From a virus: a DNA stretch of 63,976 nt. The position numbers and the translations under genes were made by a program. Location: positions 1 to 63,976 of the IMG/VR virus record IMGVR_UViG_3300027740_000001. The stretch is one strand, 5' to 3'. Shown in pieces: positions 295 through 45,421 of this stretch. How positions within the stretch are numbered: the stretch's first letter is position 1; each line of letters starts with the position of its first letter. The notes beneath the pieces were generated by a model. That model had not been told where the DNA came from, did not search any database, and saw nothing but the letters and a program-made list of their open reading frames with translations.

Positions 295-3200
295 ATGTCA
301 ATTCTTGACGAGCTTAACGCCGAACTCGGTCTCGACGAAGAGTCTCCAGCCATAGGAAGTCCGGAAGAACGTGAATTAGCATTAGAAGCTGCCGACCTTC
401 CATCGTTAGTTCCAACAGAAATTTCTGACCTAAGCGCATTTGTCCCACCGGTAGAATCTCCCGCATCTGTTTCGCCTGGTATTATCAATGCCCCGTCTAT
501 TCCAAAACTAACATCTACATCTGCGATAGCTGGATCTGCTCCGGAAACTGGGAAGATCTATCGTACAGCTATGCAAACGCTCGGTCAGTATCCCGACACC
601 ATTGAATCCGCCAACGCTGAACTTGGTGGTGTTGCGTTAGAGCCAAAAAAGCCATACGCAACACCTCTTCCGGAAACCATTCAGGAAAGTAGCATAGATC
701 GTGCAAACCGTGAATTACAATATGGTTCTCCACTAAAGATGGGCGATACAAGAGATACGCAGTCTCCCAGACTCCTGATGCCATCTTTTTATGATACAGA
801 AATACCACCAGATCCAGAAAAGCCTCGAAAAGGTATTATCACGGAAGCCCTGCATGCACCAGTGTACGGTGTTGCGCAGCTTGGTCAGATTGCGGCAGGA
901 CTTACAGCAATAGCCGGTGAAGCGTTTAACTCTGACGCAATCACAGAACTTGCTAAAAACATGTATAATAAATCTACGGAATTCATGGAACCGTTTAAAC
1001 CAACGGTTCAGGACATCCGTGATATAGGTGGTATTGGTGATGCTACGCGATGGGCTGTGTCATCAATCGGTCAGATGCTTCCGTTTATGATCGGTACAAT
1101 GGGTGCCGGTGCTGCTATTAAAACGCTAATCACACATACCCTCGGTAGGTCAATTGCAAGGAAAGCTGCTACCACAGCAATTTCAAGAGGATTGGCCGAC
1201 ATGTCGGTTAAAGAATCAATCGGAAAGGCAATGACCGATCTTGGCATTAAGGCCGGCATGGGTGGTATGGCTGCTGCTACCATTGGCGCTGAGGCCGGTA
1301 TTATTTCTTCTGACAGACTGACAAACGGGCTAAAAGTTCTATCGTCTGATTTGCTATGGGCTATTCCAGCCGGTATGCTCGATGTTATTCCTGAATGGAG
1401 ATTGGCTTCCAAGCTGAACCTATTCGGTAAGCGTATCTCCAATATAGCGATGCGAGATGGAATTGATGTTGCCAGAAACACTTTTGTAAAAGAATTTGGC
1501 AAGCAAGCACTACTCGAAGGTATAACTGAAGGCTGGCAGGAAATTCTTGAAGAGGCTGGTGCTGGACGCAAGCCATTTACATACGACACAATGTGGCAGG
1601 CCATCAATGCATTTATGGCGGCAGGGCTGGCTGGTGGTGTTATGGGTGCTGGGGTCAATTTACTCACCAGAACCCCATCCACTCCAACCGCTGAAACCAT
1701 TACACCAAAGCTTGGCGAACCTGGGTTTATCGGTCCGATGGTTCCGGGTATCGAAACATATGCACCTACCACGTTAGCTCTTCCACCAGGACAGGGATTT
1801 ACATTAGTTGATAAACCAGGGTCCGTTCTACATAAGGCTTGGAATGTCCCACCAGAAGCTCCCGCTCCAGAAATCTTTACACTCCAGGAAGGTCGTTATC
1901 GTCCACCTGGAAAAGAGCGTCCAACCGAACGTCCCGGATGGATGGGGCCGATGGAAGAATACTACGATATGCTTCGTCCAACCAAGGGTGAAGGGTTTGT
2001 TACCGTACCAACCCGTAAGACACCACCCGCTCCGACAGAGGTTATTTCACGTGGTGCCCAGGATCTTATTAACTCACAAGAATGGGCTCCTCTTCAGGAC
2101 ATGTGGAATAAACTCGTTATGGGTAAACGAGAAACCCCACAATTAATTTGGGGTGGTCAATATCCACAGCACCTATTGTACAACGAACGTGAGGGAGCAC
2201 GTGGATTTCAATCTCCGTGGGTTGATACTGAAATTACAGAGTCTGGACATATAGTTCATACCGACTTTGATGGTGGTAAACTCGAATCGTTATTCGATAA
2301 GGATATGACTGCTGGTACGGAATTTGTTCCGGTGAAATATACTGCCCCGAATGGAGATTCGACTATACTTCGAAAGGGACAGGTGCTTCCACAACCATTA
2401 ATAGATACCATTCAGACCTACCTGTCAACACGTCAACGGGTACTCGGTGAAACATCCATTACCACTAAAGCTCCTCCCCCGCTTGGATTACCAGCACCCG
2501 TTGCAGTTACACCACCAGTTGTTGAAGGACTTATTTATAATGGTATTCAGAATGTTCCTGGTGAACCAGATCTTTATACGTTTACTGAAAAAAGTAGTGG
2601 TGGTACATTTATGACCAAAGATGTTACCACCGAACATCTTATGAGGGAACGTGATCGGGTAAGGAGTGCATTTGAAGAACCAGATGTTAAAGATGCTATA
2701 GATAACGATTTAAAATTCGACATACTAAAAAGTACAAGAGAACAGGCAGGGCCAGCATACGAGAAGTATGGTACTGGTCAAGAAATTTCATACAAAGGTG
2801 AAATCGGATGGAGAATTAACGAGTCTGGTGATACACCAGGAACATGGACAATCTTTAGGTCTGACAAACCGGGTCAGTTGGTCGATGCTAAAGAGAATGA
2901 GATTTCCGTACCACCACGGGAAGAAATTGTTCCGGAGGTGAAAGAAACCGTAGACCGTATTCCTGGTTTTCAAAAGTTTATGGTGTTTTCCGAAGATGGA
3001 CGGCTTAGCTTGCGTGCAGGTTCCGTTGAAGAACAGGTTACCCATCGTGTGGTTGGTGGTCGGATGGAACTTGGTGCTATTTTCGGACTTGTTGGTGAGG
3101 TATGGGTTGATGCACATACGAATGAGGTGTATAGTCTGTCCATGTACGACAGGAAGCTACGCGGTGAAGATGTGCGTGGCATCCCGATGGACAAACTGGA

Positions 3201-6200
3201 TGGAATTCAGGTTGAGGGATGGAAGAGCGAGATTGCAAAGATCGACCCGAAGTTTGATATTAGTGAACGGTTAGGGCCTGGTCCTATCTTCTATAGTCAG
3301 GCAGAACGGGTAATCACAGAAAAAATGTCTGGATCGATGTCGTCTACACAGATAGCAAACATGCTTCGTAATTCTGGTGTTAAGCCAGACGAGATGAGGT
3401 GGACCGGACTTGATGAGCTTCTTAAACAGCCCAAGAATTATACCAAACAAGAGGTGTTGGATTATCTGAGAGAGAGTCAGGTTGAGATAAGAGAGGTTTT
3501 GCATCAAACTGCGGCAGATGGCACTATTACCGGTGAAGAACGTGCCGGCATAATGCCTACTAAGTTTGCACAATGGCAACTTCCAGGTGGAGAGAATTAC
3601 AGGGAGTTGTTGTTGACGATGCCTTATGACAAGCAGATGGAGGGGTATAAAATCGTACATCCTGCACGACAAGGAAACATAGAGTATCGTTCTTCCCACT
3701 GGGATGAACCCAACGTTCTCGCCCACATCCGATTCAACGACCGAGTGGATGCGCAAGGCAAGAGGGTACTCTTCATCGAGGAAGTGCAGAGTGATTGGCA
3801 TCAGGCGGGGAGGGAGAAGGGATATCAAGGCCAACTTCCCAATGGTTTTACTGTACAAAAAGAGCAAAATGCATTCAGGGTAATTTCTCCCGATGGACAT
3901 CCAGTAAGCGGGGCAATGGGGTATACAGAGTCAGAAGCCATTAAGAATTATGGAACGATGAATGCTAATGTTCCCCCTGCTCCCTTCTCCAAAACCTGGC
4001 ATGAGATGGCTATGCGTCGTATGGTACGATGGGCATCAGAGAATGGATATGACAAGATTGCGTGGACTACTGGGGAACAGCAGGCGGCAAGGTATAATTT
4101 GAGTAAACAGATTGATAAATTGGATTGGAATAAGAAAGGGGATATTTATCAGTTAATTGCCAGCAGGGACGGGAACGTAAAATTGGATGAGAGCGTTCCA
4201 CTTGGGAAATTAGCAGATTTCGTTGGTAAGGAGGTGGCAGCTAAGATCACAGCAGGAAAAGGAAGTGAGGGTGTTCCTGGTTACATTACAAGTGTCTATG
4301 GAGAAGGGAATGTTGGTAGTCTCTCCAGTCTCGACCTCAAGGTGGGTGGCGAAGGCATGAAGGGTTTCTATGACAAGATCCTCCCAGAGTACATGAATAA
4401 GTTTGGGAAGAAGTGGGGAGCTAAGGTTGAAACCATTAACATAAATACCGGTCAACTTAGAACACCTGCCGAGTCTCCGTTTGAAGAAAAATGGCCTGGA
4501 GGTAAAACAGAAAAAGTTCATTCCCTCGACATCACTCCCGCCATGGCCGAATCAGTTCTCCAGGGTCAACCGATGTTCCGTACTGGTCAACCAGTAACCG
4601 GTATCACAAAGGAGCAAGCATGGCAAGTAGTAAACGACCTCCAACTCAAAATACCGCAAGGTACATTACGGTTTGAAATCTTAAACTCAAAGGACGAGAT
4701 TCCTCCAGAGGTAATGCGAAAACTTGCTCGTGCCCCAAGTCCAAGATCGCGTGGAATGTATGTTAGGTCAGACCCAATTCCGATGGTGTATATATTTGCA
4801 AACAATAACGCAAACGCTGCAGAATTAGAGAAGACAATATTTCATGAAACATTGGGCCACTTCGGGTTCGAAAGATTAGTTGGACCAGAACGCATAAAAG
4901 CCGTTACAAGGATGGTTCTGGATACCTACGGACACGAAGAGCTTGGTTATCTCTACCGAAGGTACGGTGTAACTCCCGGAACAAAGGATGGTGACTACGT
5001 TGTCTCACTCGAAAAGATTGCAGAAATTGCCGAGACCGGATCTAACCCTACATTATGGCAGCGTATCGTTGTATGGTTCAAGGAAATTATGGCAGACATA
5101 TTTGGCAATGAGGCTGTTGGTAAGCTAACGGAAGACGAAATAAAGGTCTATCTGTGGAGATCCCGTGAACTAATTCAGCAGCAAAACGTTCCATCGATGG
5201 GGCAGGTTTATAACTCAATGACCAAGCTTATATCCATGCGTATGTGGAACATGCAACTTCCAGATGGACCTACAGGTGTTGGTTCGTTCATGCGTGAAGA
5301 CTCATCTCCATCTGACGAGAATACTGCACGAAACCTTGGTGGGTTCATGTCATGGTTTCGCGCCCACAAAGAACGTAATAAAAACTTTGGGTATGGCGTA
5401 TTAAAAGATCTCGGTATTGTCGAAGCTATTGGGTCTCTTCCGCATTGGATTTCAATGAAATTTCCATCGTTCAAAAGCGTTGTAAGCGTACAATGGGATA
5501 GGGAAGATAAGCGTAACCGTGACAGGCTTCACTTACTACAAGATCCCAGCACAAACGCTGGGGATAATCCATACATAGCACAGAAAAATACTGAAGCTAT
5601 TGACAAGATTGTAGTATGGTCCGACCAAAATGATACCTACCTACAAGATGATCAGCTTCAGGGCAAATCACGAGAACTAAATGGTCGCAACCTTACAACC
5701 AAAGAGGTTTCTGCATACCACGGATGGAAAGCTGGGTTTGACCGTGCTGTAAGTTATGCCATCGATAAGCTTCGCCAATCAGCCACGAAGCTTTACTCCG
5801 ATCAACCATGGTTCGAACAATTTAAAGGTGTGATTGACAACACCATAGATCAATCTACCGTTGTGCTCGATCCAGATCAGCTAAAGGATTTTCAGAAGGC
5901 TATTACAAAAACCGCTGAACGTATGAATCGTATTGCAGAACGTGAAAAACAATTAAAGTCAATGAACTTCTATGTACCTCATATTCGCGGTAGGGGTGAA
6001 TATGTTGTACGTGTGTTTGATACAGATGAGAATGGTAAACCGGTTCGTGTTTGGGTAGAACGATTTGAAAATTCAACAAAAGCCGAAGCTGGACGTATCA
6101 GGCTAAAAGCAGATTACGCTGGGCTCGCTATCGAAAAAACATACGAACCGCGTACAAGTGAGTTTGTGTATGGTGGCTTAGACGTTCCGGCTATGGAAGC

Positions 6201-7986
6201 ATTTCTGGAAAAAGCCACAGAGAAGGCTAAGGATAAGTTTGGCGTTGACGAAACTGCTGTTGATAAACTTATGGATGCCGTATATAAGGCCATCGACGAA
6301 GAGATTATGGCACGCGGGTTCAGACAACACTATATTCATCGTCACCAGGGAAGGGTTATAGGTGGGTATCGTACCGAAGGTCTTCATCAAGTATTCTTCG
6401 ACTACATGTCAGGCCTTGCCGGTAGCATGACGAAGCTCGACGCAACCTATGATTTTCACAAAGCGCTTCAGTCTATTGATAAGGTGAATGAACGTGGTGT
6501 ATATGAATATGCTACACGATACGTTCGTGATATGTTGCGTAATAAGGATGCAATGGACAGAAAGTTAAACGCATTCAAAACAATTCCGTATGCATGGTAC
6601 CTGTCTGCAAATCTCAGGCTCGCCGTTACACAGATGTTCCAGAACGCAGTTACAGCATACCCGATCCTGGCAAGGTTGCAACAGGAAAGCGGAGTTAAGG
6701 GAAGTGCAGCACTTCGCCTGGAAAAAGCCATGCAGGATATTACCAAGTATTCTGCGGGCATGAAGGGGGCAGTTTCGGAAATAGAATTAAAAATGCTTCA
6801 GGATGCTTACGAGCAGGGTGAAACACTGGCGAACTACATCAACGAGATGAAGGGTAAGGTAGAGGGTAATTGGGCTAAGACGTATTTTATGAAGCTTCTT
6901 GATGTTGTGTCTATCCCATTTGCAGGTATGGAACGGTTCAACCGCAGAACATCTCTCCTTGCTGCATTCAGAATGTATACGGAGGCTGGAAAACCATACG
7001 GAGAAGCATTTGAACTTTCAAAGGAATTCGTTCGTCATGCACATTACGCATATGGCCTAAGCAATTTTCCGCAACTGATGCGGGATGGAACACCATTCTC
7101 GAAGATAGCTGGTATGGCGTATGTGTTTAAAAGCTTCCCTCACAACTATGTACTATCTATGCTACATTTTGCCAAGGATAAGGATGGAAAACTCGCGCTC
7201 GGTGTCATGATGCGGTCGATAGCGATGCTGGCAATCCTTGGAGGCCTTACAGCCGTACCGTTTCTCGATGACATTCTTGAGGAATACGAACAACTATCGG
7301 GAGATCCCGTTAGGTCCAAGATGCGAATTGCCATGAAGAAGTACGGTGGTGACATGCTTGGACAGGTAGGCATGGAAGGTTTACCAGCGTTGGCTGGAGT
7401 TGACATGTCGGGAACCGTAAAGATGCAAATACCGATCCCCGGAATAGGTGAGTTCGATCCAAGTACCTTCACCATGGGGGTTTGGGGTGGACTGATCGAC
7501 AAGGGCAAACGTGCTATAGAGTTTGCGTCCGATAGCCAATGGGCCAGAGCAATCGAGGCCGGAGCACCAGTTGGTGTAGAAATGATGCTTAAGGCTCGCA
7601 GGATGGCCAAGGAGGGCCTTAAAACTGCTGGCGAGCGTGACATACTGGATGTTTCCGGAAAGCCCATTATGCCCACAATGTACGAGACTGGAGCCCAGGT
7701 AGCTGGGTTTAGGCCAGAGAGAATTGCCGAGGTTCAAAAGGAACGCCGGGTAGCCCAGAATATTAAGGAAAGGTTTTCTCGGCAACGAGATGATATCAGA
7801 AAGAGACTACGGAGAGCATCTACGCAAAAAGACTTCGAAGGTATAAGGAAAGATATCGAGAAGTATAATCTTCACGTTATGAAATACAGAGGTGTAATAC
7901 CAAGGATTAGTTCACAATCACTTAAGTCTGCGCTCAAACCAGAAACAGGATATATGAAGTATGGTATGGTAGAAGGGGAGTTTTAA
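295..7986 (+). CDS. Giant 2563-aa polyvalent virion/ejected protein: Gly/Ala-rich membrane-helix region, HExxH metallopeptidase-like module, PLxRFG-like C-terminal domain
   Basis: Uninterrupted ORF whose ATG lies 3 nt after the previous stop. HETLGH is at 4843..4860 and EEVQSDWHQ at 3781..3807. YVPHIRGRGEY at 5971..6003 resembles the PLxRFG signature. Hydrophobic Gly-zipper stretches occur in aa about 255-470 and near the C-terminus. It is the last gene of the structural block. Confidence 0.85.
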   Translation: MSILDELNAELGLDEESPAIGSPEERELALEAADLPSLVPTEISDLSAFVPPVESPASVSPGIINAPSIPKLTSTSAIAGSAPETGKIYRTAMQTLGQYPDTIESANAELGGVALEPKKPYATPLPETIQESSIDRANRELQYGSPLKMGDTRDTQSPRLLMPSFYDTEIPPDPEKPRKGIITEALHAPVYGVAQLGQIAAGLTAIAGEAFNSDAITELAKNMYNKSTEFMEPFKPTVQDIRDIGGIGDATRWAVSSIGQMLPFMIGTMGAGAAIKTLITHTLGRSIARKAATTAISRGLADMSVKESIGKAMTDLGIKAGMGGMAAATIGAEAGIISSDRLTNGLKVLSSDLLWAIPAGMLDVIPEWRLASKLNLFGKRISNIAMRDGIDVARNTFVKEFGKQALLEGITEGWQEILEEAGAGRKPFTYDTMWQAINAFMAAGLAGGVMGAGVNLLTRTPSTPTAETITPKLGEPGFIGPMVPGIETYAPTTLALPPGQGFTLVDKPGSVLHKAWNVPPEAPAPEIFTLQEGRYRPPGKERPTERPGWMGPMEEYYDMLRPTKGEGFVTVPTRKTPPAPTEVISRGAQDLINSQEWAPLQDMWNKLVMGKRETPQLIWGGQYPQHLLYNEREGARGFQSPWVDTEITESGHIVHTDFDGGKLESLFDKDMTAGTEFVPVKYTAPNGDSTILRKGQVLPQPLIDTIQTYLSTRQRVLGETSITTKAPPPLGLPAPVAVTPPVVEGLIYNGIQNVPGEPDLYTFTEKSSGGTFMTKDVTTEHLMRERDRVRSAFEEPDVKDAIDNDLKFDILKSTREQAGPAYEKYGTGQEISYKGEIGWRINESGDTPGTWTIFRSDKPGQLVDAKENEISVPPREEIVPEVKETVDRIPGFQKFMVFSEDGRLSLRAGSVEEQVTHRVVGGRMELGAIFGLVGEVWVDAHTNEVYSLSMYDRKLRGEDVRGIPMDKLDGIQVEGWKSEIAKIDPKFDISERLGPGPIFYSQAERVITEKMSGSMSSTQIANMLRNSGVKPDEMRWTGLDELLKQPKNYTKQEVLDYLRESQVEIREVLHQTAADGTITGEERAGIMPTKFAQWQLPGGENYRELLLTMPYDKQMEGYKIVHPARQGNIEYRSSHWDEPNVLAHIRFNDRVDAQGKRVLFIEEVQSDWHQAGREKGYQGQLPNGFTVQKEQNAFRVISPDGHPVSGAMGYTESEAIKNYGTMNANVPPAPFSKTWHEMAMRRMVRWASENGYDKIAWTTGEQQAARYNLSKQIDKLDWNKKGDIYQLIASRDGNVKLDESVPLGKLADFVGKEVAAKITAGKGSEGVPGYITSVYGEGNVGSLSSLDLKVGGEGMKGFYDKILPEYMNKFGKKWGAKVETININTGQLRTPAESPFEEKWPGGKTEKVHSLDITPAMAESVLQGQPMFRTGQPVTGITKEQAWQVVNDLQLKIPQGTLRFEILNSKDEIPPEVMRKLARAPSPRSRGMYVRSDPIPMVYIFANNNANAAELEKTIFHETLGHFGFERLVGPERIKAVTRMVLDTYGHEELGYLYRRYGVTPGTKDGDYVVSLEKIAEIAETGSNPTLWQRIVVWFKEIMADIFGNEAVGKLTEDEIKVYLWRSRELIQQQNVPSMGQVYNSMTKLISMRMWNMQLPDGPTGVGSFMREDSSPSDENTARNLGGFMSWFRAHKERNKNFGYGVLKDLGIVEAIGSLPHWISMKFPSFKSVVSVQWDREDKRNRDRLHLLQDPSTNAGDNPYIAQKNTEAIDKIVVWSDQNDTYLQDDQLQGKSRELNGRNLTTKEVSAYHGWKAGFDRAVSYAIDKLRQSATKLYSDQPWFEQFKGVIDNTIDQSTVVLDPDQLKDFQKAITKTAERMNRIAEREKQLKSMNFYVPHIRGRGEYVVRVFDTDENGKPVRVWVERFENSTKAEAGRIRLKADYAGLAIEKTYEPRTSEFVYGGLDVPAMEAFLEKATEKAKDKFGVDETAVDKLMDAVYKAIDEEIMARGFRQHYIHRHQGRVIGGYRTEGLHQVFFDYMSGLAGSMTKLDATYDFHKALQSIDKVNERGVYEYATRYVRDMLRNKDAMDRKLNAFKTIPYAWYLSANLRLAVTQMFQNAVTAYPILARLQQESGVKGSAALRLEKAMQDITKYSAGMKGAVSEIELKMLQDAYEQGETLANYINEMKGKVEGNWAKTYFMKLLDVVSIPFAGMERFNRRTSLLAAFRMYTEAGKPYGEAFELSKEFVRHAHYAYGLSNFPQLMRDGTPFSKIAGMAYVFKSFPHNYVLSMLHFAKDKDGKLALGVMMRSIAMLAILGGLTAVPFLDDILEEYEQLSGDPVRSKMRIAMKKYGGDMLGQVGMEGLPALAGVDMSGTVKMQIPIPGIGEFDPSTFTMGVWGGLIDKGKRAIEFASDSQWARAIEAGAPVGVEMMLKARRMAKEGLKTAGERDILDVSGKPIMPTMYETGAQVAGFRPERIAEVQKERRVAQNIKERFSRQRDDIRKRLRRASTQKDFEGIRKDIEKYNLHVMKYRGVIPRISSQSLKSALKPETGYMKYGMVEGEF

Positions 7987-7987
7987 C

Positions 7988-8320
7988 ATGAAGAAGTGGT
8001 ACAAAAACCCAATTATTATAGGATTAATACTGGCAAGCATTGGATGGTTTAGTTATATTACTCGCAATGCCATACTATCTGAAGGTAGCGCCAGCGAATC
8101 AATGGTAAAACTGGAAGATAAGAGGATAGAGGCAAGGATTGACCATAACCAAAAGCTTGTTGACCAACAAATAGGGCAGGTGTGTGGTGCTGTGTCTGAA
8201 ATCAAGGGTATAATACAAGAACACGAGAAGTCACAAAAGGAACAGATTGACGGAATATATAAATTGTTAATTAAGTCTGCCAGGGAAAGTAAGGCGAGGG
8301 ATGATAAGAGGTCTAACTAA
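7988..8320 (+). CDS. Small N-terminally membrane-anchored coiled-coil protein
   Basis: ATG lies 1 nt after the giant gene stop. It has an N-terminal hydrophobic helix (IIIGLILASIGWFSYI) followed by a charged helical tail. Confidence 0.65.
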   Translation: MKKWYKNPIIIGLILASIGWFSYITRNAILSEGSASESMVKLEDKRIEARIDHNQKLVDQQIGQVCGAVSEIKGIIQEHEKSQKEQIDGIYKLLIKSARESKARDDKRSN

Positions 8321-8652
8321 AATGGAATGTCATCGCAGTCCCTGTTCCAATCCCAGTCTGGCAACGATTCCTTTTTAACGGCTACATACTTAACTGGTTC
8401 TGGTACTTGTGGTGCAAAAGCATCCAACTGAAGTACCTCTTCATATATCGCAATCCGAATATCACATGTTGGAAATTTTTCTTTCACCAAAAGCGCTGCA
8501 GTCTCGGCGCTTTTTTTATTGTTAAACTGCGTTGGTTTTGATAGGTTGGTTGCATGCCAGATGCCATCAGGTTCAACATGCATGCAGCCCTTCCACGGAC
8601 TAAACTTTTTGTTCTCAACAAGATCAGGATCTTTCTGAACAACGTATGTCAT
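8317..8652 (-). CDS. 111-aa protein ending in an SSB-like C-terminal tip (..DWDWNRDCDDIPF)
   Basis: Start moved to the ATG at 8652, which forms an ATGA overlap with the upstream stop. The C-terminal codons at 8320..8337 read C-D-D-I-P-F. The body does not look like an OB-fold SSB. Confidence 0.7.
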   Translation of the reverse strand: MTYVVQKDPDLVENKKFSPWKGCMHVEPDGIWHATNLSKPTQFNNKKSAETAALLVKEKFPTCDIRIAIYEEVLQLDAFAPQVPEPVKYVAVKKESLPDWDWNRDCDDIPF

Positions 8653-8897
8653 GCTCGTGCCCCCATACATCCCAACATAAGATTTTCCTCGCACGCATCA
8701 TATATCCACTCGGCAAGCGTCCTGGTTAAACTAAACATGCTTTTTCCGGTATACGTGTTAATGACCTTATATACAATGTCATCATCACCGTTCTTGTTGA
8801 TAATATTGTACGCTCTAAGCGTTACGTCACCCTCTTTAAAAGAAGTAGACTTAATGTCCATCCATGGCGTTCCATGTCCTACTGGATCTAATCCCAT
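8649..8897 (-). CDS. Hypothetical protein (82 aa)
   Basis: ATG at 8897 is preceded by GGAGG 9 nt upstream. The stop overlaps the next start as ATGA. Confidence 0.6.
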   Translation of the reverse strand: MGLDPVGHGTPWMDIKSTSFKEGDVTLRAYNIINKNGDDDIVYKVINTYTGKSMFSLTRTLAEWIYDACEENLMLGCMGARA

Positions 8898-10422: not shown

Positions 10423-10461
10423 ATGTCTCCAGTATACCATACTATACTTGATTTGTCAACC

Positions 10462-12716: not shown

Positions 12717-12745
12717 ACTTTATCATACCAAACGTTAACTGTCAA
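12717..12745 (-). promoter_or_regulatory. Leftward promoter candidate (TTGACA-17-TAAAGT, or TTGGGT-17-TGgTATGAT)
   Basis: The minus strand reads TTGACAgttaacgtttggtatgaTAAAGTggtcagcATG. The -10 box lies only 7 nt before the ATG, so the mRNA could be leaderless. Confidence 0.45.
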
Positions 12746-14368: not shown

Positions 14369-14731
14369 ATGAATAAGAAAAGAAGTAAGCGTATCTGGCA
14401 TCCAGTACCAGCACCATGGAGAAATAGAATATCTTTAATTGAACGACTAATTGAAGATGCTCAGAGACAAATAGAGGTTTCGATTGGGTGGAGGAGTGGA
14501 AAAAAATATTACAAAAGATTTACCCTACGTATAGATAGGGAGTTTGACGCAAAATTATTTGTCAATACATTTAATTTCTTATGTTCAGATTGTAAGGCAA
14601 TAGAGATTAAAGAAGATATGTCAATATTTGGATATCTTGTTAGTGGTGTAGTTGAGGGTGTTGCCCCAAAACTGAAGCGAATTAGGATTGGAAGAAGATT
14701 GGAGGAAAATAATGCCACGAGAATTGGGTAA
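14369..14731 (+). CDS. Hypothetical basic protein (120 aa)
   Basis: ORF in a co-directional string with no recognised motif. Confidence 0.55.
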   Translation: MNKKRSKRIWHPVPAPWRNRISLIERLIEDAQRQIEVSIGWRSGKKYYKRFTLRIDREFDAKLFVNTFNFLCSDCKAIEIKEDMSIFGYLVSGVVEGVAPKLKRIRIGRRLEENNATRIG

Positions 14732-15536
14732 GCTATCAGAGGACATTAAGCCTGGTATCTGCATGTTGATATACGGAGATACTGGTGTTGGTAAAACCGG
14801 ATCATCCATTACTGGAATTCGTCAGATCCTACATCTTAATAAGGAGCCAAAAGATCCAAGGCTGGTACACTCTCAGATAAATTCCGACTATGCTAACCTT
14901 GTTCGGTATTACGAATTTGACGGTTTCGACGACGAGGCTGACTACCTCAACGGTCTTATCTTTAGGTATCGCAATGGTGAGCGTCCATATGAAACCATCT
15001 TCCACGATGGTATCACATTCAGCATGGCAACCTACAAGCAACAACTTGAAGATAATAGGTACTCCGTGGCCCTCAAGATGAAGGAAGATAAGGATAGGCC
15101 CCGTGGTCTTATAGATCGTACTCGTATCGAACGTCCAGATTGGGGCACCATAGCAAGCTTAACAGCCAGGGAAACACGGCTTTTGCACGAACTTAGTAAG
15201 TTTGGAATAATGGTTGTAAGCACAGCTATCTCCACAGAATACCCCAAGTGGAACTCAACGGTTAGGGTGGCACCATCCCTCACCGGCCAGGAGTTTTCCA
15301 AGCTAATCCACGGTTGGTTTGACACAATAGGATACATTGTGCAACCATTTCACATACTACCAGATGGTGGGGTTGAACCGCCCAAAATATCGTTTGTATC
15401 ATCTGATGATGGAATGAGCAATTCGTATATGTGTAGGGCAAATCCGTTTCTTGCAAGGGCAGAGCGTAAGTACGGTCCACTTCCATTAAACCTTACGAAA
15501 CTATCTAAAATAATTCGCGGGGAATATGAAGTTTAG
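14712..15536 (+). CDS. Sak4-like RecA-superfamily ATPase (recombination mediator)
   Basis: ATG at 14712 lies 6 nt after GGAGG. Walker A is LIYGDTGVGKTGS near the N-terminus and a hydrophobic-D Walker B-like IFHDG is present. Size and neighbourhood (nuclease, DUF669-like SSB) fit Sak4. Confidence 0.65.
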   Translation: MPRELGKLSEDIKPGICMLIYGDTGVGKTGSSITGIRQILHLNKEPKDPRLVHSQINSDYANLVRYYEFDGFDDEADYLNGLIFRYRNGERPYETIFHDGITFSMATYKQQLEDNRYSVALKMKEDKDRPRGLIDRTRIERPDWGTIASLTARETRLLHELSKFGIMVVSTAISTEYPKWNSTVRVAPSLTGQEFSKLIHGWFDTIGYIVQPFHILPDGGVEPPKISFVSSDDGMSNSYMCRANPFLARAERKYGPLPLNLTKLSKIIRGEYEV

Positions 15537-15538
15537 GG

Positions 15539-15567
15539 TTGACATTACGTGATGGGTATGGTATATT
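15539..15567 (+). promoter_or_regulatory. Sigma70-type promoter (TTGACA-17-TATATT, TGn extended -10)
   Basis: TTGACA is at 15539..15544 and TATATT at 15562..15567. Only 11 nt separate the -10 box from the ATG at 15579, so the transcript would be near-leaderless. Confidence 0.55.
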
Positions 15568-15578
15568 ATACCTTGGTT

Positions 15579-15782
15579 ATGGATAAAAAAACAGAGAAAA
15601 TGATTGATAGCGGGAAATTTATGGGTGTAAGCTTAGACGTATGGATTGACCTACAGGCTGAGATAGAAATTCGCGGGTATACAGTATATGAATACATGAC
15701 ATTACTCCGGGACGGAAGGATAACATGGGAACCAGCGAGAAGGTTCGGACCGTCACACTATTTCGATGAATGGAATTGGTAA
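15579..15782 (+). CDS. Small protein ending in ..YFDEWNW
   Basis: The start is placed at the first ATG downstream of the promoter -10. The C-terminal hexapeptide FDEWNW is at 15762..15779. Confidence 0.6.
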   Translation: MDKKTEKMIDSGKFMGVSLDVWIDLQAEIEIRGYTVYEYMTLLRDGRITWEPARRFGPSHYFDEWNW

Positions 15783-15816: not shown

Positions 15817-16026
15817 ATGAAGCGTATATGGATTCTTGAGGAAGAGGGAGACACGCCATACCCAAAGTTTCAAATTCCACTGGAGTGGAATTTAGTAATT
15901 TATTTTAATACAGACCAAAGAAATAGATCATTTAGGGTTATACATATTTCTGATGACAGTAATTCAATTCCACAATATCACTATGAAGCAGCCAATAATA
16001 TTGGATTCGACGAATGGAACTGGTGA
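15817..16026 (+). CDS. Small protein ending in ..GFDEWNW
   Basis: ORF-track ORF with the C-terminal FDEWNW at 16006..16023. The body is unrelated to that of the preceding gene. Confidence 0.6.
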   Translation: MKRIWILEEEGDTPYPKFQIPLEWNLVIYFNTDQRNRSFRVIHISDDSNSIPQYHYEAANNIGFDEWNW

Positions 16027-17198: not shown

Positions 17199-17747
17199 AT
17201 GGAGATCCAGGTGACTCTCGTAACTCCCGTAGGGATGCGTTTCAACAAGAGGAAGAAGAAATTTGAAGAGATAAGCAAGGTAACACCAACGTTTGATTAT
17301 ACATTTCCAGATGGGTTTGTTCTGATCAGAGACACTCGTGAGCAGACAGGCCTATACTTGCGCCCGCCCAAGGGACTGATCATGGTACGTGATACCCTTA
17401 GGTTGGGAGACTATTCAATAAAAGGGTGGGAAACCACGATTGCTATAGAGCGGAAGAACATAGACGATCTGTGGACCAGCCTAACAGTACAGGCCGATGA
17501 CTTCAAGCGGAAGATGATCGAGTTGTCGAAGTACGAACGCGCCTGGTTACTTATTGATGGCCTCGAATCAGAATACCTGTCTTACCGTGAAGGTCGCAAG
17601 ATACATCCAAATGTGATACGACAGGCACTTGCATCGATTGAGGGCCGTATCGGTATACCGGTACATCAGTCAGAATCTATCGCATCGAGTGAGCGGTGGG
17701 TGATTGACGTGCTAATAAAATTCTATTGTGAGAAGCGTGGTTTATGA
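17199..17747 (+). CDS. ERCC4/XPF-Mus81-type nuclease
   Basis: LGDYSI....IAIERKNIDDLWTSL matches the GDx(n)ERKxxxD ERCC4 signature. An internal ATG at 17235 is an alternative start. Confidence 0.75.
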   Translation: MEIQVTLVTPVGMRFNKRKKKFEEISKVTPTFDYTFPDGFVLIRDTREQTGLYLRPPKGLIMVRDTLRLGDYSIKGWETTIAIERKNIDDLWTSLTVQADDFKRKMIELSKYERAWLLIDGLESEYLSYREGRKIHPNVIRQALASIEGRIGIPVHQSESIASSERWVIDVLIKFYCEKRGL

Positions 17748-19348
17748 CCTCACCGTTCCCCAAGTTTCCAATCTACCGTGAATTCCAGGAACAGGTAATT
17801 GAGGCTGTATCTAAGTCTACGTCCAGAGTTACGTTTATCGACGCACCACCAGGATCAGGAAAATCTATCATCGGAATGTCCCTTGCACGCCGGGTCAACC
17901 ACGCGCTATACCTTTGCACAACCAAACCTCTCCAGTACCAGATTCACAATGACTTTCCCGACTACCCGATGCTGATGGGACGAGCAAACTATCCATGTAA
18001 CTACAGTGATGCGTCTGCATCTAACTTTCCAAGCGTAAGCTGCGAAGACTGTACTGGCACCAAGGAATCAAAGAGGGAATGTAAGCCAAGATGTTTCTAC
18101 GAAAAGCAGAAACGATTATGCCTTGCATCGCAGACGTGTATCCTGAACACAACGTACTTTCTAACAGAAGCCAACATGGTTGGTGGATTTAGCGGTAAGG
18201 ATCTTGTGATAATTGATGAGTGTGATCGCATTGAAGATGCTATTATCAGATTCATAGAGTTTAATATCAACGAGCGAAACACGGTCGAACTCGGATTTGA
18301 TATTCCATCGAGAAAAACTACACTTGGGTGGAAGAAATGGGCAGAGGATATTATGCCAATGGTAGTTGCTGAGGTTTCTAACGCAGAGAAATGGATTAAT
18401 CCAGGTTCTTCACGTGAAGATATTAAACACATCAAGCGGATCAAATCATTTCTAAGGAAGATTCACGTTTTAAGACAATATCTCGATGATTCATGGGTAT
18501 ACCAGGAGGAGGCTGGTAAATATGGAGTGTCATATAAATTCAAACCTGTGTGGATATCACAGTTCGCAGAGGAATTCCTGTGGGAACACGGAGAAAAATT
18601 CGTGCTTATGTCTGGAAGCATATTCCCTGAACGTAAATCATCAACGCCACAAGTTACCCTCATTCCTGGAACTTCCGGTGAATTGGTGTTGGAAATGGCT
18701 GAAACTCTTGGTCTTAAGCCTGAAGATTGGGATTATATTGAAGTGCCGAATCAGTTTCCCACGGAGAGAAGACCGGTTACGTACTACCCGGTTGCTAATC
18801 TTACAGCTAAAACGATGTTGCAGGAACAGGAACTGCTCGTAAAACCTGTCAAGGATATCATGGGTCAGTATCCAGACTCGAAAGGGTTAATCCATAGCGT
18901 ATCGTATCGCCTAAACGAATTCATGATGTTTCGCCTTAGTGATAAACGCTTGGTAAGTCACGAGGGTGGCATTGGACAACGTGAGGCTTTACTTGAAGAA
19001 TTTAAGCGTACAGACAATCCGCTCGTTATGATGTCACCATCGATGGACCGCGGAATCGATTTACCATACGATCAGTGCAGATTCATCATTATATTAAAGG
19101 TTCCATATCCGAGCCTTGGGGATAAGCATATTGCGAGCAGGGTACGATCTAAGAACGGTAATAGATGGTACGGATGGACTACCGTGTGTAGCCTTGTCCA
19201 GATGTCGATGAGAGGAATGCGAAGCGTTGATGACCAATGCGACGTGTGGATAATGGATGCGCAGTTCGGTAGATTCTTTTCAAAACATGAGCATACGTTT
19301 CCAGTTTGGTGGCGTGATGCGCTAAGGGAGATGCCATGGGAGATATAG
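17744..19348 (+). CDS. XPD/Rad3/DinG-family SF2 helicase with Fe-S Cys cluster
   Basis: Walker A is DAPPGSGKS, motif II is VIIDECD, and later motifs are MSGS, SMDRGIDLP and QMSMRGMRS. Several Cys residues (CNY, SCEDC, ECKPRC) lie between motifs I and II, as in XPD. Confidence 0.8.
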   Translation: MTSPFPKFPIYREFQEQVIEAVSKSTSRVTFIDAPPGSGKSIIGMSLARRVNHALYLCTTKPLQYQIHNDFPDYPMLMGRANYPCNYSDASASNFPSVSCEDCTGTKESKRECKPRCFYEKQKRLCLASQTCILNTTYFLTEANMVGGFSGKDLVIIDECDRIEDAIIRFIEFNINERNTVELGFDIPSRKTTLGWKKWAEDIMPMVVAEVSNAEKWINPGSSREDIKHIKRIKSFLRKIHVLRQYLDDSWVYQEEAGKYGVSYKFKPVWISQFAEEFLWEHGEKFVLMSGSIFPERKSSTPQVTLIPGTSGELVLEMAETLGLKPEDWDYIEVPNQFPTERRPVTYYPVANLTAKTMLQEQELLVKPVKDIMGQYPDSKGLIHSVSYRLNEFMMFRLSDKRLVSHEGGIGQREALLEEFKRTDNPLVMMSPSMDRGIDLPYDQCRFIIILKVPYPSLGDKHIASRVRSKNGNRWYGWTTVCSLVQMSMRGMRSVDDQCDVWIMDAQFGRFFSKHEHTFPVWWRDALREMPWEI

Positions 19349-21715: not shown

Positions 21716-22333
21716 ATGGAAGACTATTTAAGTGGACATAAGAAATGTGGTATTGAGGTTGGTGATCTGGTAAGGATAACAAGAAAGGCAGAATCTGGAG
21801 AGGGGGGATGGGGTAACTTTTGGGTGGGCTTCCTGGATGATATTGTTGGTAAGTATGGAACGGTTAGAAGTGACGATGGCGTCAAGGGATTTGATGTGTG
21901 TACCGAACTGGGATCATTTGATTTTCCATACTTCATACTGGAGAAGATAACCGGTGCCGAACCGGTACCATCACCAAGCGATCACGCCAGTAAATATACT
22001 CTCAAGGACTCCGGTGAACGCGAGACATTCGAAAGTGGTATGGTTCGAGACACGAGAGTGGGAAAGGGCAGATTTGACCTGATCAGCCCCATAGCGCTTC
22101 GTAGGTTGGCACTCATTTACGAGGCTGGCGCGATCAAATATGACTCAAGGAACTGGGAGAAGGGTGCCCCGATTAGCCGCTTCATAGATTCTGCGTTGAG
22201 GCATATAAACCAGTTTAAGGAGGGCAAGAGGGATGAGGATCACATCGCCCAGGCCTGCTGGAATCTATTCTGTGTACTGCACTTTGATGAAGCGAGACCT
22301 GACCTTAACGATCTACCGGTTTACGATATATAA
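21716..22333 (+). CDS. Two-domain protein; C-terminal dATP/dGTP diphosphohydrolase (MazZ-like, DUF5664/PF18909-like) domain
   Basis: RFDLISPIALRRLALIYEAGAIKYDSRNWEKG...ALRH...ED....DHIAQACWNLFC matches the remembered signature of that domain. The N-terminal about 90 aa is a separate small beta-rich domain. Confidence 0.65.
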   Translation: MEDYLSGHKKCGIEVGDLVRITRKAESGEGGWGNFWVGFLDDIVGKYGTVRSDDGVKGFDVCTELGSFDFPYFILEKITGAEPVPSPSDHASKYTLKDSGERETFESGMVRDTRVGKGRFDLISPIALRRLALIYEAGAIKYDSRNWEKGAPISRFIDSALRHINQFKEGKRDEDHIAQACWNLFCVLHFDEARPDLNDLPVYDI

Positions 22334-22891: not shown

Positions 22892-23080
22892 ATGAACGAA
22901 AAGAAAGCCAAGCGACTACGCAGGGAATTGTTCACTCATGATCAATGGTTGTACGAGAAGGCTAACGTTAAGTATGTGCACGCCATAGATAACCGTGACA
23001 ACGAACTTCCGTTTATCATTCGTACATCTGCCATGCTGAACAAGTATCGTGAGAATAAGAGATTGAGCTATGGACATTAA
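22892..23080 (+). CDS. Small basic protein (62 aa)
   Basis: ORF in a co-directional string that overlaps the integrase start. Confidence 0.5.
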   Translation: MNEKKAKRLRRELFTHDQWLYEKANVKYVHAIDNRDNELPFIIRTSAMLNKYRENKRLSYGH

Positions 23081-23867
23081 GGCTATCGTTGATCGATACA
23101 TTCTTGAACTCCAAAAGAAGAACCCGGCTACTCTGTCCCAGTTATATAGATTCATTCTATTCTTTTCTGATATGGACACGGTATCCAAGGAAGATGTAAT
23201 GGACTACATTATAGCCAGGAGACCAGCGGTCAAGCCGTCTACCCTTAACCGTGAGATCACAATTATGAAGCAATTGTTCAGGTGGATGTTAGTACGTGGA
23301 TACATCGACAAAGATCCGTCCGTAGGCATAAAGTACGAGTCCGGGGTGGCTAAGAGGGTGCGGCATATCACAACAGAAGAGGAAGGCCGGCTTATATCAG
23401 AATGCCCTGCCTGGTTACAGCCGATCATCCAATTTGCCACCTCGACCGGTATGAGACGTGGGGAGATCGTGGGTCTGCTGAAGTCAGACGTGAACCTGAA
23501 TGATAAGACGGCTACGATCAGAACATCGAAAAACGGGGAACCGCGGGTTATACCGTTGACGAAGCGCGCCCTCGATGCTGTTGCGGCTACCATCTCGAAG
23601 GGAGATAGGTTGTTCGGGGGTAAGAATGGGGAACCGATTGTGATGTCGAACCTGGAGTACAATATTAGGTCTGCAGCTAATCGTGCAGGAATACATGATC
23701 TACACTTCCACGATATGCGCCATACGTTTGCAACTCGGCTGGTTCGTGCCGGGGTTGATCTATATGCAGTGCAATGCTTGTTGGGACATAAAGGACCAGC
23801 CATGACACAGAGATATAGCCATCATGACATAGGATCGCTGAGGAAGGCTACGGAGAGCGTTATGTGA
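23070..23867 (+). CDS. int: Tyrosine recombinase/integrase, short XerC/D-like form
   Basis: The catalytic signature is present: GMRRGE (Arg I), HFHDMRHTFAT (H-x-x-R), LLGH, and RYSH (Tyr). At 265 aa it has no long N-terminal arm-binding domain. Confidence 0.85.
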   Translation: MDIKAIVDRYILELQKKNPATLSQLYRFILFFSDMDTVSKEDVMDYIIARRPAVKPSTLNREITIMKQLFRWMLVRGYIDKDPSVGIKYESGVAKRVRHITTEEEGRLISECPAWLQPIIQFATSTGMRRGEIVGLLKSDVNLNDKTATIRTSKNGEPRVIPLTKRALDAVAATISKGDRLFGGKNGEPIVMSNLEYNIRSAANRAGIHDLHFHDMRHTFATRLVRAGVDLYAVQCLLGHKGPAMTQRYSHHDIGSLRKATESVM

Positions 23868-36819: not shown

Positions 36820-36871
36820 ATAGGCAGATAGTTATATTATGCCAAATCGTGTGGAATATGGGGAGGGACAT

Positions 36872-37252
36872 ATGGGAATAAATGTTGGTGACATGGTTAT
36901 GAAGGAAGGCTGGGATCGTTGGTACAGGGTGAAAAGGATTGAGGGTGAATCACTGTTTCTTATTGCAGATGATGGTACTATCTTAAAATACATGCTGTTT
37001 CCACCTACCATAGCCAAGGGGTATCAATGGATCGTTAAGCCCATGGTTGAAACACCACGGATTGATCACTTCGAGTATGATGGATTCAGAGTACCTACAT
37101 TTGGTGATTGGATAGGAGAATATCAAAATCCATCGAAGGAATACTTAATTCTAAGGTTTATATATGCATTTACCGTTATCAAGTATCCAATCTACCGTCC
37201 AGTCTACGTTCAATGTCAGAAATCCGCCATGGGCTTCGACGAGTGGTGGTAG
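36872..37252 (+). CDS. Protein (126 aa) ending in ..GFDEWW
   Basis: ATG at 36872 follows GGGGAGGG. The C-terminal GFDEWW is at 37232..37249. Confidence 0.6.
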   Translation: MGINVGDMVMKEGWDRWYRVKRIEGESLFLIADDGTILKYMLFPPTIAKGYQWIVKPMVETPRIDHFEYDGFRVPTFGDWIGEYQNPSKEYLILRFIYAFTVIKYPIYRPVYVQCQKSAMGFDEWW

Positions 37253-40291: not shown

Positions 40292-40456
40292 ATGCCCGTT
40301 AAGATCAGAAAACTGAAAAGTGGGAAGTATCGCGTTTCTACTCCAACCTCGGTTCATGCCAAGGGTACCACAAAGAAGAAGGCTAAGGCACAGCGGACAA
40401 TTATTAACATGCATGAAGCTGGGGTTGTACCGAAAGGTGGATGGAATAAAGAATAG
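40292..40456 (+). CDS. Small basic protein (54 aa), MPVKIRKLKSGKYRV...
   Basis: Manually found ORF that ends 1 nt into tRNA-Tyr. Confidence 0.45.
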   Translation: MPVKIRKLKSGKYRVSTPTSVHAKGTTKKKAKAQRTIINMHEAGVVPKGGWNKE

Positions 40457-40541
40457 GGACAGTTGGGTAGCGTGGTGAACCTCGCGGGCTGTAAACCCGT
40501 AGCCTACGGCTGAGATAGTTCGATTCTATCCTGTCCCACCA
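40456..40541 (+). tRNA. tRNA-Tyr (anticodon GTA), class II with long variable arm, CCA encoded
   Basis: Hand-folded cloverleaf. Acceptor pairs GGGACAG with CTGTCCC. The anticodon stem pairs GCGGG with CCCGT around the loop CTGTAAA. The variable arm pairs GCC with GGC. The T arm is GATAG-TTCGATT-CTATC. The 3' end is A-CCA. Confidence 0.85.
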
Positions 40542-43897: not shown

Positions 43898-45421
43898 ATG
43901 ACCATTAAGACATATTCTTTCGCATCTGTTCCTACGCTTAAAAAGTTTTACGAAGATAGATCATTCATATCTTCCGTCTTTGGCCCTTTTGGGTCGGGCA
44001 AGTCTTCTGCGTGTGTGATTAAACTTTATCAACTTGCCTGTCAACAGGCACCTGGTCCAGATGGTGTTAAACATTCACGTTGGGGAATAGTGCGTAATAG
44101 TATGCCTCAACTACGTGATACAACCATTCCTACATTTTTCAACTGGATGGAAGAGCTTGGGGAATATAACAAAAGCGATTGGGACTTTGTTATAAATAAA
44201 GTAAAGTCTCCAGATGGATATCCGATTGAGGCTTGGTTTCATTTTAGGGCCTTGGACAAAATTAAGGATGTGAGGAACCTTCTAAGCCTTGAATTAACTG
44301 GGGCATGGTTCAACGAGGTTAAGGAGATTCCGAAACGTATTGTTGATATCATGAGGGGAAGAGTTGGAAGGTTTCCTCCAAAAAACATGGGTGGAGCTAC
44401 CTGGTCTGGAATGCTTTTTGATTCAAATGCCCCCGACACGGATCATTGGTTATACAAGCTATTTGAAGTAGATAGACCAGTATATTGTCCTAAGTGCCGT
44501 GATGCACAGGGTGGAATAGTTTTATTTATTAATGACCAATGTCCTAAATGTAATATATCACACGGAATTCCGTTTGTCAAGCTGTTTCGTCAACCAAGCG
44601 GTCGAGGACCTAACGCAGAAAATCTTCCCAATCTCCCGATAGGCTACTACGCCACCCTAACCGCAGGCATGGACAAGGACTTTATCCGTGTATTCGCCGA
44701 TGGTGAGTACGGCTACGTCTCTGATGGTAAGCCTGTCTACATGATGTTTGATGACGACAAGCATATATCTAAGGATAAAATCAAGGCTGATCCAGGGTAC
44801 CCCCTCATTATAGGCTTCGACAATACAGGTCGTGACCAGGCTGCTGTTATCTGTCAGTACCTCCCGATTGGTCAGTTTCGTGTGCTCCACGAATTCATAA
44901 TGACAGACACTGGCACCCGTACCCTCGTTCGTGAGATAGTCAAGCCGTTTGTACTTTCTACCTACCCGGGTGCCAAGCTCATTCTAACCGGTGATCCTGC
45001 TGGTGTTAAAGCAAGTGACACAGATGATCGCAACACATTCCAGGAAATCAGCGAGGCATTCGGTATCCAGGCTACCCCGGCACGGTCAAACGCGTTATCA
45101 CCACGATTAAACTCGGTTGAGAGTTTTCTTAAGAAATACATAGGTGGTAACAGGTTCGGAATGCTTATCGATCCTGGGTGTCCACTTATCATCAAGGGGT
45201 TTCGTGGCGAATACCGCATGCGTAGATTACAATTAGTAGGTCAGGAAAGGTACACCGACAAGCCCGAGAAAAACCTGGTGAGCCATGGACACGATGCCCT
45301 GCAATACGCATGTATGGCTGTTGAGGATGCATTGACATTACTATCACCTGGTTCATTAGACATGTATGGTCAGAAAAGCTCAATACTAACACGTCCGAAC
45401 GCGTGGGCTGCTTTTACATAG
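43898..45421 (+). CDS. terL: Terminase large subunit
   Basis: Walker A is GPFGSGKSS and Walker B-like is GAWFNEVKE. The RNaseH-like nuclease Asp motifs are IIGFDNTGRD and HGHDALQY. It lies directly upstream of the portal-sized gene. Confidence 0.85.
   Translation: MTIKTYSFASVPTLKKFYEDRSFISSVFGPFGSGKSSACVIKLYQLACQQAPGPDGVKHSRWGIVRNSMPQLRDTTIPTFFNWMEELGEYNKSDWDFVINKVKSPDGYPIEAWFHFRALDKIKDVRNLLSLELTGAWFNEVKEIPKRIVDIMRGRVGRFPPKNMGGATWSGMLFDSNAPDTDHWLYKLFEVDRPVYCPKCRDAQGGIVLFINDQCPKCNISHGIPFVKLFRQPSGRGPNAENLPNLPIGYYATLTAGMDKDFIRVFADGEYGYVSDGKPVYMMFDDDKHISKDKIKADPGYPLIIGFDNTGRDQAAVICQYLPIGQFRVLHEFIMTDTGTRTLVREIVKPFVLSTYPGAKLILTGDPAGVKASDTDDRNTFQEISEAFGIQATPARSNALSPRLNSVESFLKKYIGGNRFGMLIDPGCPLIIKGFRGEYRMRRLQLVGQERYTDKPEKNLVSHGHDALQYACMAVEDALTLLSPGSLDMYGQKSSILTRPNAWAAFT

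Follow-up and report, generated by a model that had tools for sequence, protein, structure and literature searches.

Why would a phage encode a small protein that ends like a bacterial SSB (a protein that binds single-stranded DNA) and yet lacks the oligonucleotide/oligosaccharide-binding (OB) fold of an SSB? The question is raised by a gene in IMG/VR record IMGVR_UViG_3300027740_000001, a viral sequence of which we analysed positions 1 to 63,976 (63,976 nucleotides, hereafter the window). The gene lies at 8317..8652 on the minus strand and encodes a 111-amino-acid (aa) protein, here called the tip protein, that ends in D-C-D-D-I-P-F. According to excerpts of two articles (PMC5872125, PMC10018359), the C-terminal hexapeptide of bacterial SSB (SSB-Ct), DDDIPF, is the docking peptide for at least 17 partner proteins. 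The tip protein belongs to an undescribed family in which this type of ending recurs on a domain predicted to have a new fold. In our judgement there is an even chance that the tail, as its sequence suggests, mimics the SSB C-terminal peptide and binds host SSB-partner proteins, either as a decoy or as an adaptor.

The tip-bearing gene and its family

8317..8652, minus strand: gene for the 111-aa tip-bearing protein (open reading frame and translation), stop codon at 8317..8319
8320..8340, minus strand: acidic tip D-C-D-D-I-P-F-COOH, residues 105-111, read directly from the sequence

On the minus strand from 8652 to 8317 the gene reads ATG...GACTGCGATGACATTCCATTTTAG, closing with the codons GAC TGC GAT GAC ATT CCA TTT TAG. 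Its product, MTYVVQKD...LPDWDWNRDCDDIPF* (in full, MTYVVQKDPDLVENKKFSPWKGCMHVEPDGIWHATNLSKPTQFNNKKSAETAALLVKEKFPTCDIRIAIYEEVLQLDAFAPQVPEPVKYVAVKKESLPDWDWNRDCDDIPF), therefore has the C-terminus ...DWDWNRDCDDIPF-stop. A preliminary description of this DNA had placed C-D-D-I-P-F at 8320..8337, and a second reading of the sequence found it at the same position. The coordinates also bear out the statements that the gene is the last of a leftward block and overlaps the convergent gene 7988..8320 by 4 nt: the tip-gene stop at 8317..8319 runs into the TAA at 8318..8320, with 8317..8320 in common. At its other end, the start codon (ATG at 8652) and the TGA with which the upstream gene stops share bases, as ATGA at 8649..8652. 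A longer, GTG-initiated open reading frame (ORF) of 125 aa is present, yet in the alignment the homologs all begin at the Met equivalent to 8652.

Homologs were sought by an exhaustive HMMER search over 1.8 billion representatives, followed by a profile search. These yielded a family of ~25 metagenomic proteins of 92-125 aa with 30-44% identity, apart from one at 90%. That protein, P0001, was the sole close relative returned by a word-indexed search, and ends in DWDWNGDDDIPF, the canonical hexapeptide. The exact tip protein of the window is present on four public contigs. Since the codon differences between the tip gene and its 90% relative comprise 23 synonymous and 10 non-synonymous changes, the comparison indicates a real coding gene under purifying selection. 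Relative to P0001, the window copy has an extra TGC (Cys) codon within the acidic run.

The members share a common layout: a conserved N-terminal domain (N-domain) of ~75 aa, a variable Pro-rich linker, a [D/G/S]-W-x-W motif and an acidic tip. Counts of motifs, and of positions from the C-terminus, were made on 24 members. Phe occupies position -1 in 20/24, Pro position -2 in 19/24, Ile, Val or Glu position -3 in 20/24, and Asp position -4 in 17/24. Six members, among them P0001, P0003, P0007 and P0016 but not the window protein, end in exactly DDDIPF, the tip of Escherichia coli SSB. Other endings are DDDVPF, DNDVPF, EEVPF, ELEPF, NDEPF, YDIPF, DNIPF, NDESF and EQIPL. Loss of the tip among homologs would have pointed to a chance ending; instead the ending is kept, which argues that it is functional and not accidental. 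By window amino-acid frequencies, the probability of a C-terminal DDIPF by chance is 4.7e-7 per ORF, or ~5e-5 for the ~110 genes of the window. In sequence, the tip of the window protein has every testable feature of the SSB-Ct motif, with hydrophobic-Pro-Phe-COOH at the extreme C-terminus (I-P-F-stop) and an acidic run, D-C-D-D, directly before IPF.

A functional ending could still resemble SSB-Ct by convergence and do something unrelated: make a contact like the DIPxF of the FtsZ tail, for example, or act as a signal for stability or packaging. The drifting tips NDEPF, NDESF and EQIPL fit such an explanation, as do the DWDF that alone closes P0006 and a W-x-W motif at least as conserved as the tip. 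Nevertheless, we consider it the least probable of the alternatives weighed here, given the exact DDDIPF of six members, the strictly C-terminal P-F, and the presence of DDDIPF-stop on DNA-metabolism proteins of other phages, namely true SSBs, helicases and a primase. The likeness to the FtsZ C-terminal peptide (DIPxF) in particular was set aside, the FtsZ motif being internal where the motif here is strictly terminal and, in those six members, identical to the SSB hexapeptide.

The window tip protein had no match in PHROGs (v4, E<=10), and megablast and tblastn against 50,697 phage records (INPHARED) gave no DNA or protein match. The literature searched held no description of a non-OB phage protein with an SSB tip, nor of an SSB-tip mimic on a non-SSB phage protein. 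The family is thus undescribed in Pfam, PHROGs and the searched literature.

Predicted architecture of the tip protein

8428..8652, minus strand: N-terminal globular domain, residues 1-75 (AlphaFold, block-mean predicted local distance difference test score (pLDDT) 74-90)
8359..8427, minus strand: disordered, Pro-containing linker, residues 76-98 (pLDDT ~48-63)
8344..8358, minus strand: D-W-D-W-N motif, residues 99-103 (family consensus [D/G/S]-W-[N/D/G]-W-[N/D/G])

Is the body of the protein a divergent SSB? In the AlphaFold2 model the N-domain runs from a β-strand (residues 3-7) through a short helix (12-17) and two strands (23-27 and 30-33) to a long helix (46-59) and a final strand (65-69). 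Motifs conserved in the family, SPWKGC, W[Y/H]AT.L[A/S]KPT.F and VAVYEE.FQ, fall within the domain, and S18, G22, W32 and T35 are invariant in the alignment. Foldseek comparison of the model with PDB and BFVD returned nothing at E<1e-3 and no SSB or OB match, and a profile search of PDB sequences with the family came back empty. In Pfam at E<=10 the window protein had no match, and the SSB model was matched by 0/24 members. The N-domain is therefore predicted to be a novel small α/β fold, distinct from OB. These results agree with the earlier remark that the ~100-aa body lacks the OB-fold SSB pattern, there being neither a Pfam nor a PHROG match. An OB-fold body would have made the protein a divergent ordinary SSB, and the non-OB model, together with the lack of SSB or OB matches in Foldseek, speaks against this. 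The N-terminal hybrid-binding domain of RNase H1 (PF01693) was considered and rejected: it matched one member of 24 at E=0.064, and profile-profile comparison with two reference sequences gave a probability of 0.9%.

The N-domain has a net charge of 0 in the window protein and of -1 to -7 in most members, with isoelectric points mostly of 4.3-6. Because the domain is neutral to acidic, binding of single-stranded DNA (ssDNA) by it appears unlikely. The same evidence bears on the idea that the family are unconventional, non-OB ssDNA-binding proteins, in which the N-domain would sit on ssDNA and the tail would recruit host enzymes. Such proteins would have the layout seen here, in which a Pro-rich disordered linker joins a folded domain to an acidic tip. 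The N-domain offers conserved aromatic and basic positions (W20, K21, W32, Y/H33 and F43), and a canonical Pfam-type SSB was not detected in the window. We nonetheless regard this as very unlikely in view of the charge of 0 to -7 in nearly all members, the small size (~75 residues, with four strands and one long helix) and absence of a match to any known ssDNA-binding fold, and the OB-fold SSB-like protein that the phage already encodes (see below).

Disorder was predicted over residues 76-111 (pLDDT ~48-63), as in an SSB-type linker. Across the family the linker varies in sequence, is ~21-31 residues long and contains 7-29% Pro; its mean pairwise identity is 0.28, against 0.51 for the N-domain. 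Just before the tip lies a second conserved tail motif, overlooked in the preliminary description. W100 is near-invariant in the alignment, and an aromatic-x-aromatic motif is present in 22/24 members, as W-x-W in 20 and as F-x-W or W-x-F in two. It lies 6-13 residues from the C-terminus in 21 members and is exactly C-terminal in P0006.

Other C-terminal peptides in this and other phages

14688..15536, plus strand: Sak4-like ssDNA-annealing ATPase (phrog_124, E=2.9e-12; AAA_24 annotated on the ortholog in the related contig L001)
16483..17004, plus strand: predicted OB-fold SSB-like protein of 173 aa, near the Sak4-like gene (AlphaFold and Foldseek)

Does the phage have an SSB of its own, and what would read its tips? 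A rightward module beside a divergent promoter encodes a PD-(D/E)XK exonuclease, the Sak4-like annealing ATPase, an ERCC4 nuclease and a DinG-type helicase. The helicase (17744..19348, plus strand) is 534 aa long and apparently intein-free; its ortholog in a 90%-related phage (L001 1..938, minus strand) carries an annotated intein-splicing domain and measures ~801 aa. For the 173-aa protein encoded near the Sak4-like gene, Pfam and PHROGs gave no match. Its AlphaFold model (mean pLDDT 80) has an OB-like topology, and its best Foldseek match is the DNA-bound atypical SSB PrgE of pCF10 (8s4t_A, E=3.6e-4, probability 1.00), with many further weak matches to SSB, RPA and PriB. An alignment of the window protein with 17 homologs (18 sequences) shows a conserved body of ~150 residues, a variable Pro/Ala-rich linker and a tip AP-W-D/A-COOH, in which the Trp at -2 is invariant in all 18. 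The protein is probably an undescribed phage SSB family with a docking tip of its own. The SSB-like role therefore appears to be filled already, by a protein without the host-type tip, and since that SSB-like protein is separate and differs in its tip, the tip protein is all the less likely to be the phage's SSB. A canonical SSB was also sought in the window by tblastn with E. coli SSB and Bacillus subtilis SsbA; the result was unconvincing, the best weak match falling in an ORF resembling DUF4406 and nucleoside deoxyribosyltransferases.

A search of 185,579 species-representative genomes turned up no relative of the 173-aa protein. One homolog, the 62% identical P0037, is encoded on a 60.5-kb contig whose NCBI label is that of a metagenome-assembled genome of a Thermoplasmata archaeon. 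The sigma-70-like promoters, the lipoprotein signal and the bacterial-type SSB tip of the phage led us to reject an archaeal origin and to read the label as most likely a binning artefact, a mis-binned phage contig.

The arrangement fits the rule that a gene for Sak4 comes with a distant SSB, and that Sak4 cannot act without the last six residues of this SSB (PMC5928155); in HK620 these are NDYPPF of the cognate SSB (PMC5928155). By analogy, the Sak4-like ATPase of the window is a candidate phage-encoded reader of SSB-type tips. The tail of the tip protein might then dock a phage-encoded partner (the Sak4-like annealase, the DinG-like helicase, the ERCC4 nuclease or the PD-(D/E)XK exonuclease), in which case the protein would be accessory to the phage's own machinery of recombination or replication. 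The HK620 precedent favours this, all four candidate partners are encoded here, and three tips in the window of the type FDEWNW or FDEWW resemble the W-N-W of the family and suggest a phage-specific docking code. Against it, the OB-fold protein near Sak4 carries AP-W-D/A with an invariant Trp, which is therefore more likely to be the cognate Sak4 tip; six family members have exactly the host-type DDDIPF, and the tip gene lies outside the recombination module. We hold a phage-encoded partner to be possible, though rather unlikely.

The three tips belong to the ORFs 15552..15782, 15817..16026 and 36839..37252 (all plus strand), which end in FDEWNW, FDEWNW and FDEWW, respectively. A C-terminal FDEWNW has a chance of ~1e-9 per ORF. 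An ortholog in L001 (2765..2992, minus strand, 71% identical) keeps the tip as HHFDEWNW before an in-frame stop. FDEWNW-stop was found in one other IMG/VR viral contig only, a 55-kb relative that also carries a member of the tip-protein family; there it closes a divergent 55-aa protein (L006 5900..6067, plus strand). From its distribution, FDEWNW is probably a lineage-specific C-terminal docking peptide, and the internal motif of the tip-protein family, too, most often takes the form W-N-W. The FDEWNW and AP-W-D/A tips together suggest that the lineage uses several Trp-containing C-terminal docking peptides. A tail that joins W-N-W to a copy of the host SSB tip could couple host SSB-partner enzymes with phage factors, or exchange one for the other. 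It is conceivable, if improbable, that the tip protein bridges this private docking code (FDEWNW, AP-W-D/A) and the host SSB code, as an adaptor or jammer of the SSB interactome built on a new fold.

SSB-type tips are also found on unrelated phage proteins. A scan of IMG/VR for DDDIPF followed by a TAA stop, the only stop codon included, gave at least 120 loci, and the matches listed held 114 distinct ORFs, which divide by domain as follows:

32 ORFs: Pfam SSB
3 ORFs: Pfam DUF669
2 ORFs: Pfam SSB_1
3 ORFs: superfamily 2 (SF2) helicase domains
1 ORF: DnaB_C
1 ORF: AEP primase domain
About 70 ORFs: without a Pfam match

Among the same matches, a recurrent family of 73-76 aa corresponds to phrog_1811, whose function is not annotated, a recurrent family of 78-93 aa matches PHROGs annotated as SSB (its 78-aa members phrog_18154), and proteins of phrog_5189 and phrog_18187 also end in DDDIPF. 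Example loci (numbered L010-L129) are L024 1279..1497, L014, L030, L055, L085, L115, L033 4839..6524, L057 942..2771 and L122 4519..6078. Many of the unassigned ORFs may be divergent OB-fold SSBs. Because DDDIPF closes phage proteins of diverse kinds that match no Pfam SSB model, the tip looks like a portable module in phage proteomes. The preliminary description knew of no described family of this kind. For the tip-protein family this stands, but the theme is broader, many phage proteins outside the Pfam SSB families having the same ending.

Proposed action, genomic setting and known systems

How might SSB-Ct mimicry work? The free C-terminal Phe and the preceding Asp would insert into the SSB-Ct pocket of SSB-interacting proteins, in which a hydrophobic hole is accompanied by basic residues that would hold the α-carboxylate and the acidic residues. 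Candidate partners include ExoI, RecJ, RecQ, PriA, RecO and the chi subunit of Pol III, among others. The two Trp of W-x-W would extend the contact, by analogy with the Phe of E. coli ..MDFDDDIPF. Since the N-domain does not resemble a DNA-binding domain, the protein would act off ssDNA. It could be a soluble competitor that withdraws host nucleases and helicases (ExoI, RecJ, RecQ, PriA) from SSB-coated DNA, or an adaptor that couples one SSB partner to a ligand of the conserved N-domain. Its own SSB-like protein, with the private tip AP-W-D/A, suggests that the phage may recombine on a private docking code, and it may jam or re-route the host SSB hub while doing so. Phage recombinases are known to read host-specific SSB tips (PMC13490951; PMC6393309), and an SSB-like protein of a T5-like phage that ends in FDDDIPF has been proposed to interfere with ExoI (bioRxiv 10.64898/2026.04.29.721553).

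Several observations weigh against mimicry of host SSB. The window protein itself ends in DCDDIPF, with Cys where the third Asp is expected, and some members have shortened or altered tips (NDEPF, NDESF, EQIPL). P0006, P0010, P0011 and P0023 lack a terminal P-F or I-P-L ending; the first three of these sit on contigs of ~0.9-1.4 kb. A simple decoy leaves the strong conservation of W-x-W and of the N-domain unexplained. The tip gene ends a block with a holin and a putative cell-wall hydrolase (DUF5675), outside the replication/recombination module. The AlphaFold model was built on a shallow alignment of only 24 sequences. Finally, 0 family members were found in 185,579 species-representative bacterial and archaeal genomes, so the family has no host assignment.

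A related explanation is that the tail concerns bacterial immunity, either by masking or titrating a defence that monitors ssDNA metabolism or by being sensed as a trigger. The FDDDIPF-bearing phage SSB-like protein triggers DRT10, with a threshold set by ExoI (bioRxiv 10.64898/2026.04.29.721553), and the tip gene lies within a block of variable accessory genes. However, the window offers no link between the gene and a system of defence or counter-defence, and the explanation overlaps with mimicry of host SSB, the tail still needing to bind an SSB-Ct reader such as ExoI. We therefore think a role in immunity unlikely.

The surroundings of the tip gene comprise the following features.

295..7986, plus strand: giant protein of 2563 aa (2295 aa in a relative, L004 10656..17543, minus strand)
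7988..8320, plus strand: convergent gene for a 110-aa protein, hydrophobic at the N-terminus and otherwise charged and probably helical; the stop codon overlaps that of the tip gene
8649..8897, minus strand: upstream gene for an 82-aa protein, in ATGA overlap with the tip gene; no Pfam match
23070..23867, plus strand: tyrosine integrase (phrog_1, E=3.5e-60)
40456..40541, plus strand: tRNA-Tyr
43898..45421: terminase, <=39% identical to those of podoviruses of diverse Proteobacteria
45431..47518: portal-sized protein of 695 aa, matching a PHROG annotated as head-tail adaptor

The phage genome measures at least 69.5 kb, and the window covers most of it. By its gene content the source is an uncultured tailed phage with an integrase and a terminase closest to podoviruses of Proteobacteria. 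It may be temperate, from the tyrosine integrase and tRNA-Tyr; no related prophage was found in the collection of 185,579 species-representative genomes. The leftward block runs from 12483 to 8317. Its genes are a lipoprotein-like one, those for a DUF5675 protein, a holin with three transmembrane segments, a membrane protein and a calcineurin-like phosphoesterase, several small ones, the 82-aa coupled gene and, last, the tip gene. Strong sigma-70-like promoter matches with an extended -10 TG lie on the minus strand at 12745..12717 and 10459..10431 (10 and 11 of 12 positions), while the total of such matches in the window is not above that of shuffled controls. The 82-aa gene is probably translationally coupled to the tip gene. 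It has homologs directly upstream in L001, L002, L004 and L005, and its family alignment is too weak for any functional inference.

The tip gene occupies the same position in every relative with context (L001, L002, L004, L007, L008 and L009): last of its block, its start overlapping the end of an upstream gene for ~80 aa, and converging on a gene for ~105-119 aa that is followed by the giant protein. The convergent arrangement with a gene of the 7988..8320 type is seen in L001, L004, L007 and L008. The giant protein, which is conserved beside the block ending in the tip gene, has an HExxH-like motif (FHETLGH) and is possibly a virion protein, either internal or ejected. On the plus strand, 8489..8524 can form a terminator-like hairpin and has a T-run (AAAAGCGCTGCAGTCTCGGCGCTTTT TTTATTG); it is antisense within the tip-protein coding sequence and ~170 nt beyond the stop of the convergent gene. 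Convergent transcripts would overlap the 3′ half of the tip gene; a counterpart looked for in L004 and L007 was absent from both. Elsewhere in the window, the protein encoded at 21716..22333 (plus strand) has a dATP/dGTP diphosphohydrolase N-terminal domain (PF18909, E=2.3e-20), a type of enzyme associated with phages that alter nucleotide pools or DNA bases.

What is new is a family, and a predicted fold, carrying a known docking motif. Bacterial genome maintenance has its central docking site in the SSB tip, which has been proposed as an antibiotic target (PMC5872125). If mimicry of it is correct, a small soluble phage protein would act on the SSB interactome as a natural inhibitor or adaptor, with the Trp residues possibly raising affinity; it would reveal which host enzymes the phage must silence or recruit, and would provide a ready-made tool or lead peptide. 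The different tip on the phage's own SSB-like protein hints that phage DNA transactions are insulated by private docking codes. The DDDIPF matches listed suggest that many uncharacterised proteins of phages have SSB-type tips, and that a layer of phage-host interaction has been overlooked. Should the tip protein indeed bridge the two codes, it would be the first non-DNA-binding phage protein to take over the bacterial SSB hub by peptide mimicry, and the other DDDIPF proteins of unknown function would point to a widespread strategy.

How does the family compare with known systems? It shares with bacterial SSB (PF00436) a folded N-domain, a Pro-rich disordered linker and an acidic I-P-F-COOH tip. 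Bacterial SSB has an OB fold, whereas the tip protein has a predicted non-OB, acidic body of ~75 residues and no SSB profile match; lacking the OB fold, it falls outside the SSB family. The W-x-W motif is an addition relative to bacterial SSB, and the linker is ~25 residues long, compared with 56 in E. coli SSB (as given in excerpts of PMC7145534). The OB-fold SSB-like phage protein Bas52_0087 (FDDDIPF, the DRT10 trigger) and the HK620 SSB (NDYPPF) likewise have SSB-type tips that engage tip readers. These are OB folds and actual or predicted ssDNA binders, in contrast to the tip protein with its non-OB model, and in the phage studied here the OB-fold role belongs to the separate 173-aa protein with a different tip.

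An acidic tail is possible on a protein that is not an SSB, as seen in the gp4 helicase-primase of phage T7, whose tail is similar to that of T7 gp2.5. The gp2.5 tail is acidic and C-terminal, has an essential terminal Phe and is a docking element on replication proteins (refs 41 and 42 as cited in excerpts of PMC12339929). In T7 the tails are directed at the DNA polymerase that the phage itself encodes, and they do not copy the hexapeptide of host SSB; gp2.5 and gp4 themselves count as DNA-binding enzymes or SSBs, whereas the tip protein is a small acidic domain. Viral mimicry of host short linear motifs is a general principle, documented mainly for eukaryotic viruses, and the likeness here lies in a short disordered terminal peptide that copies the docking motif of a host hub. 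The literature searched held no bacterial or phage case of SSB-Ct on a non-DNA-binding scaffold. The nearest counterparts are the other DDDIPF phage proteins without a Pfam SSB match, several of them of unknown function, which have the same terminal hexapeptide and of which none is related in sequence to the tip-protein family. Beside them, the tip-protein family stands, on its predicted structure, as a clear non-SSB carrier of the tip, extreme but not unique.

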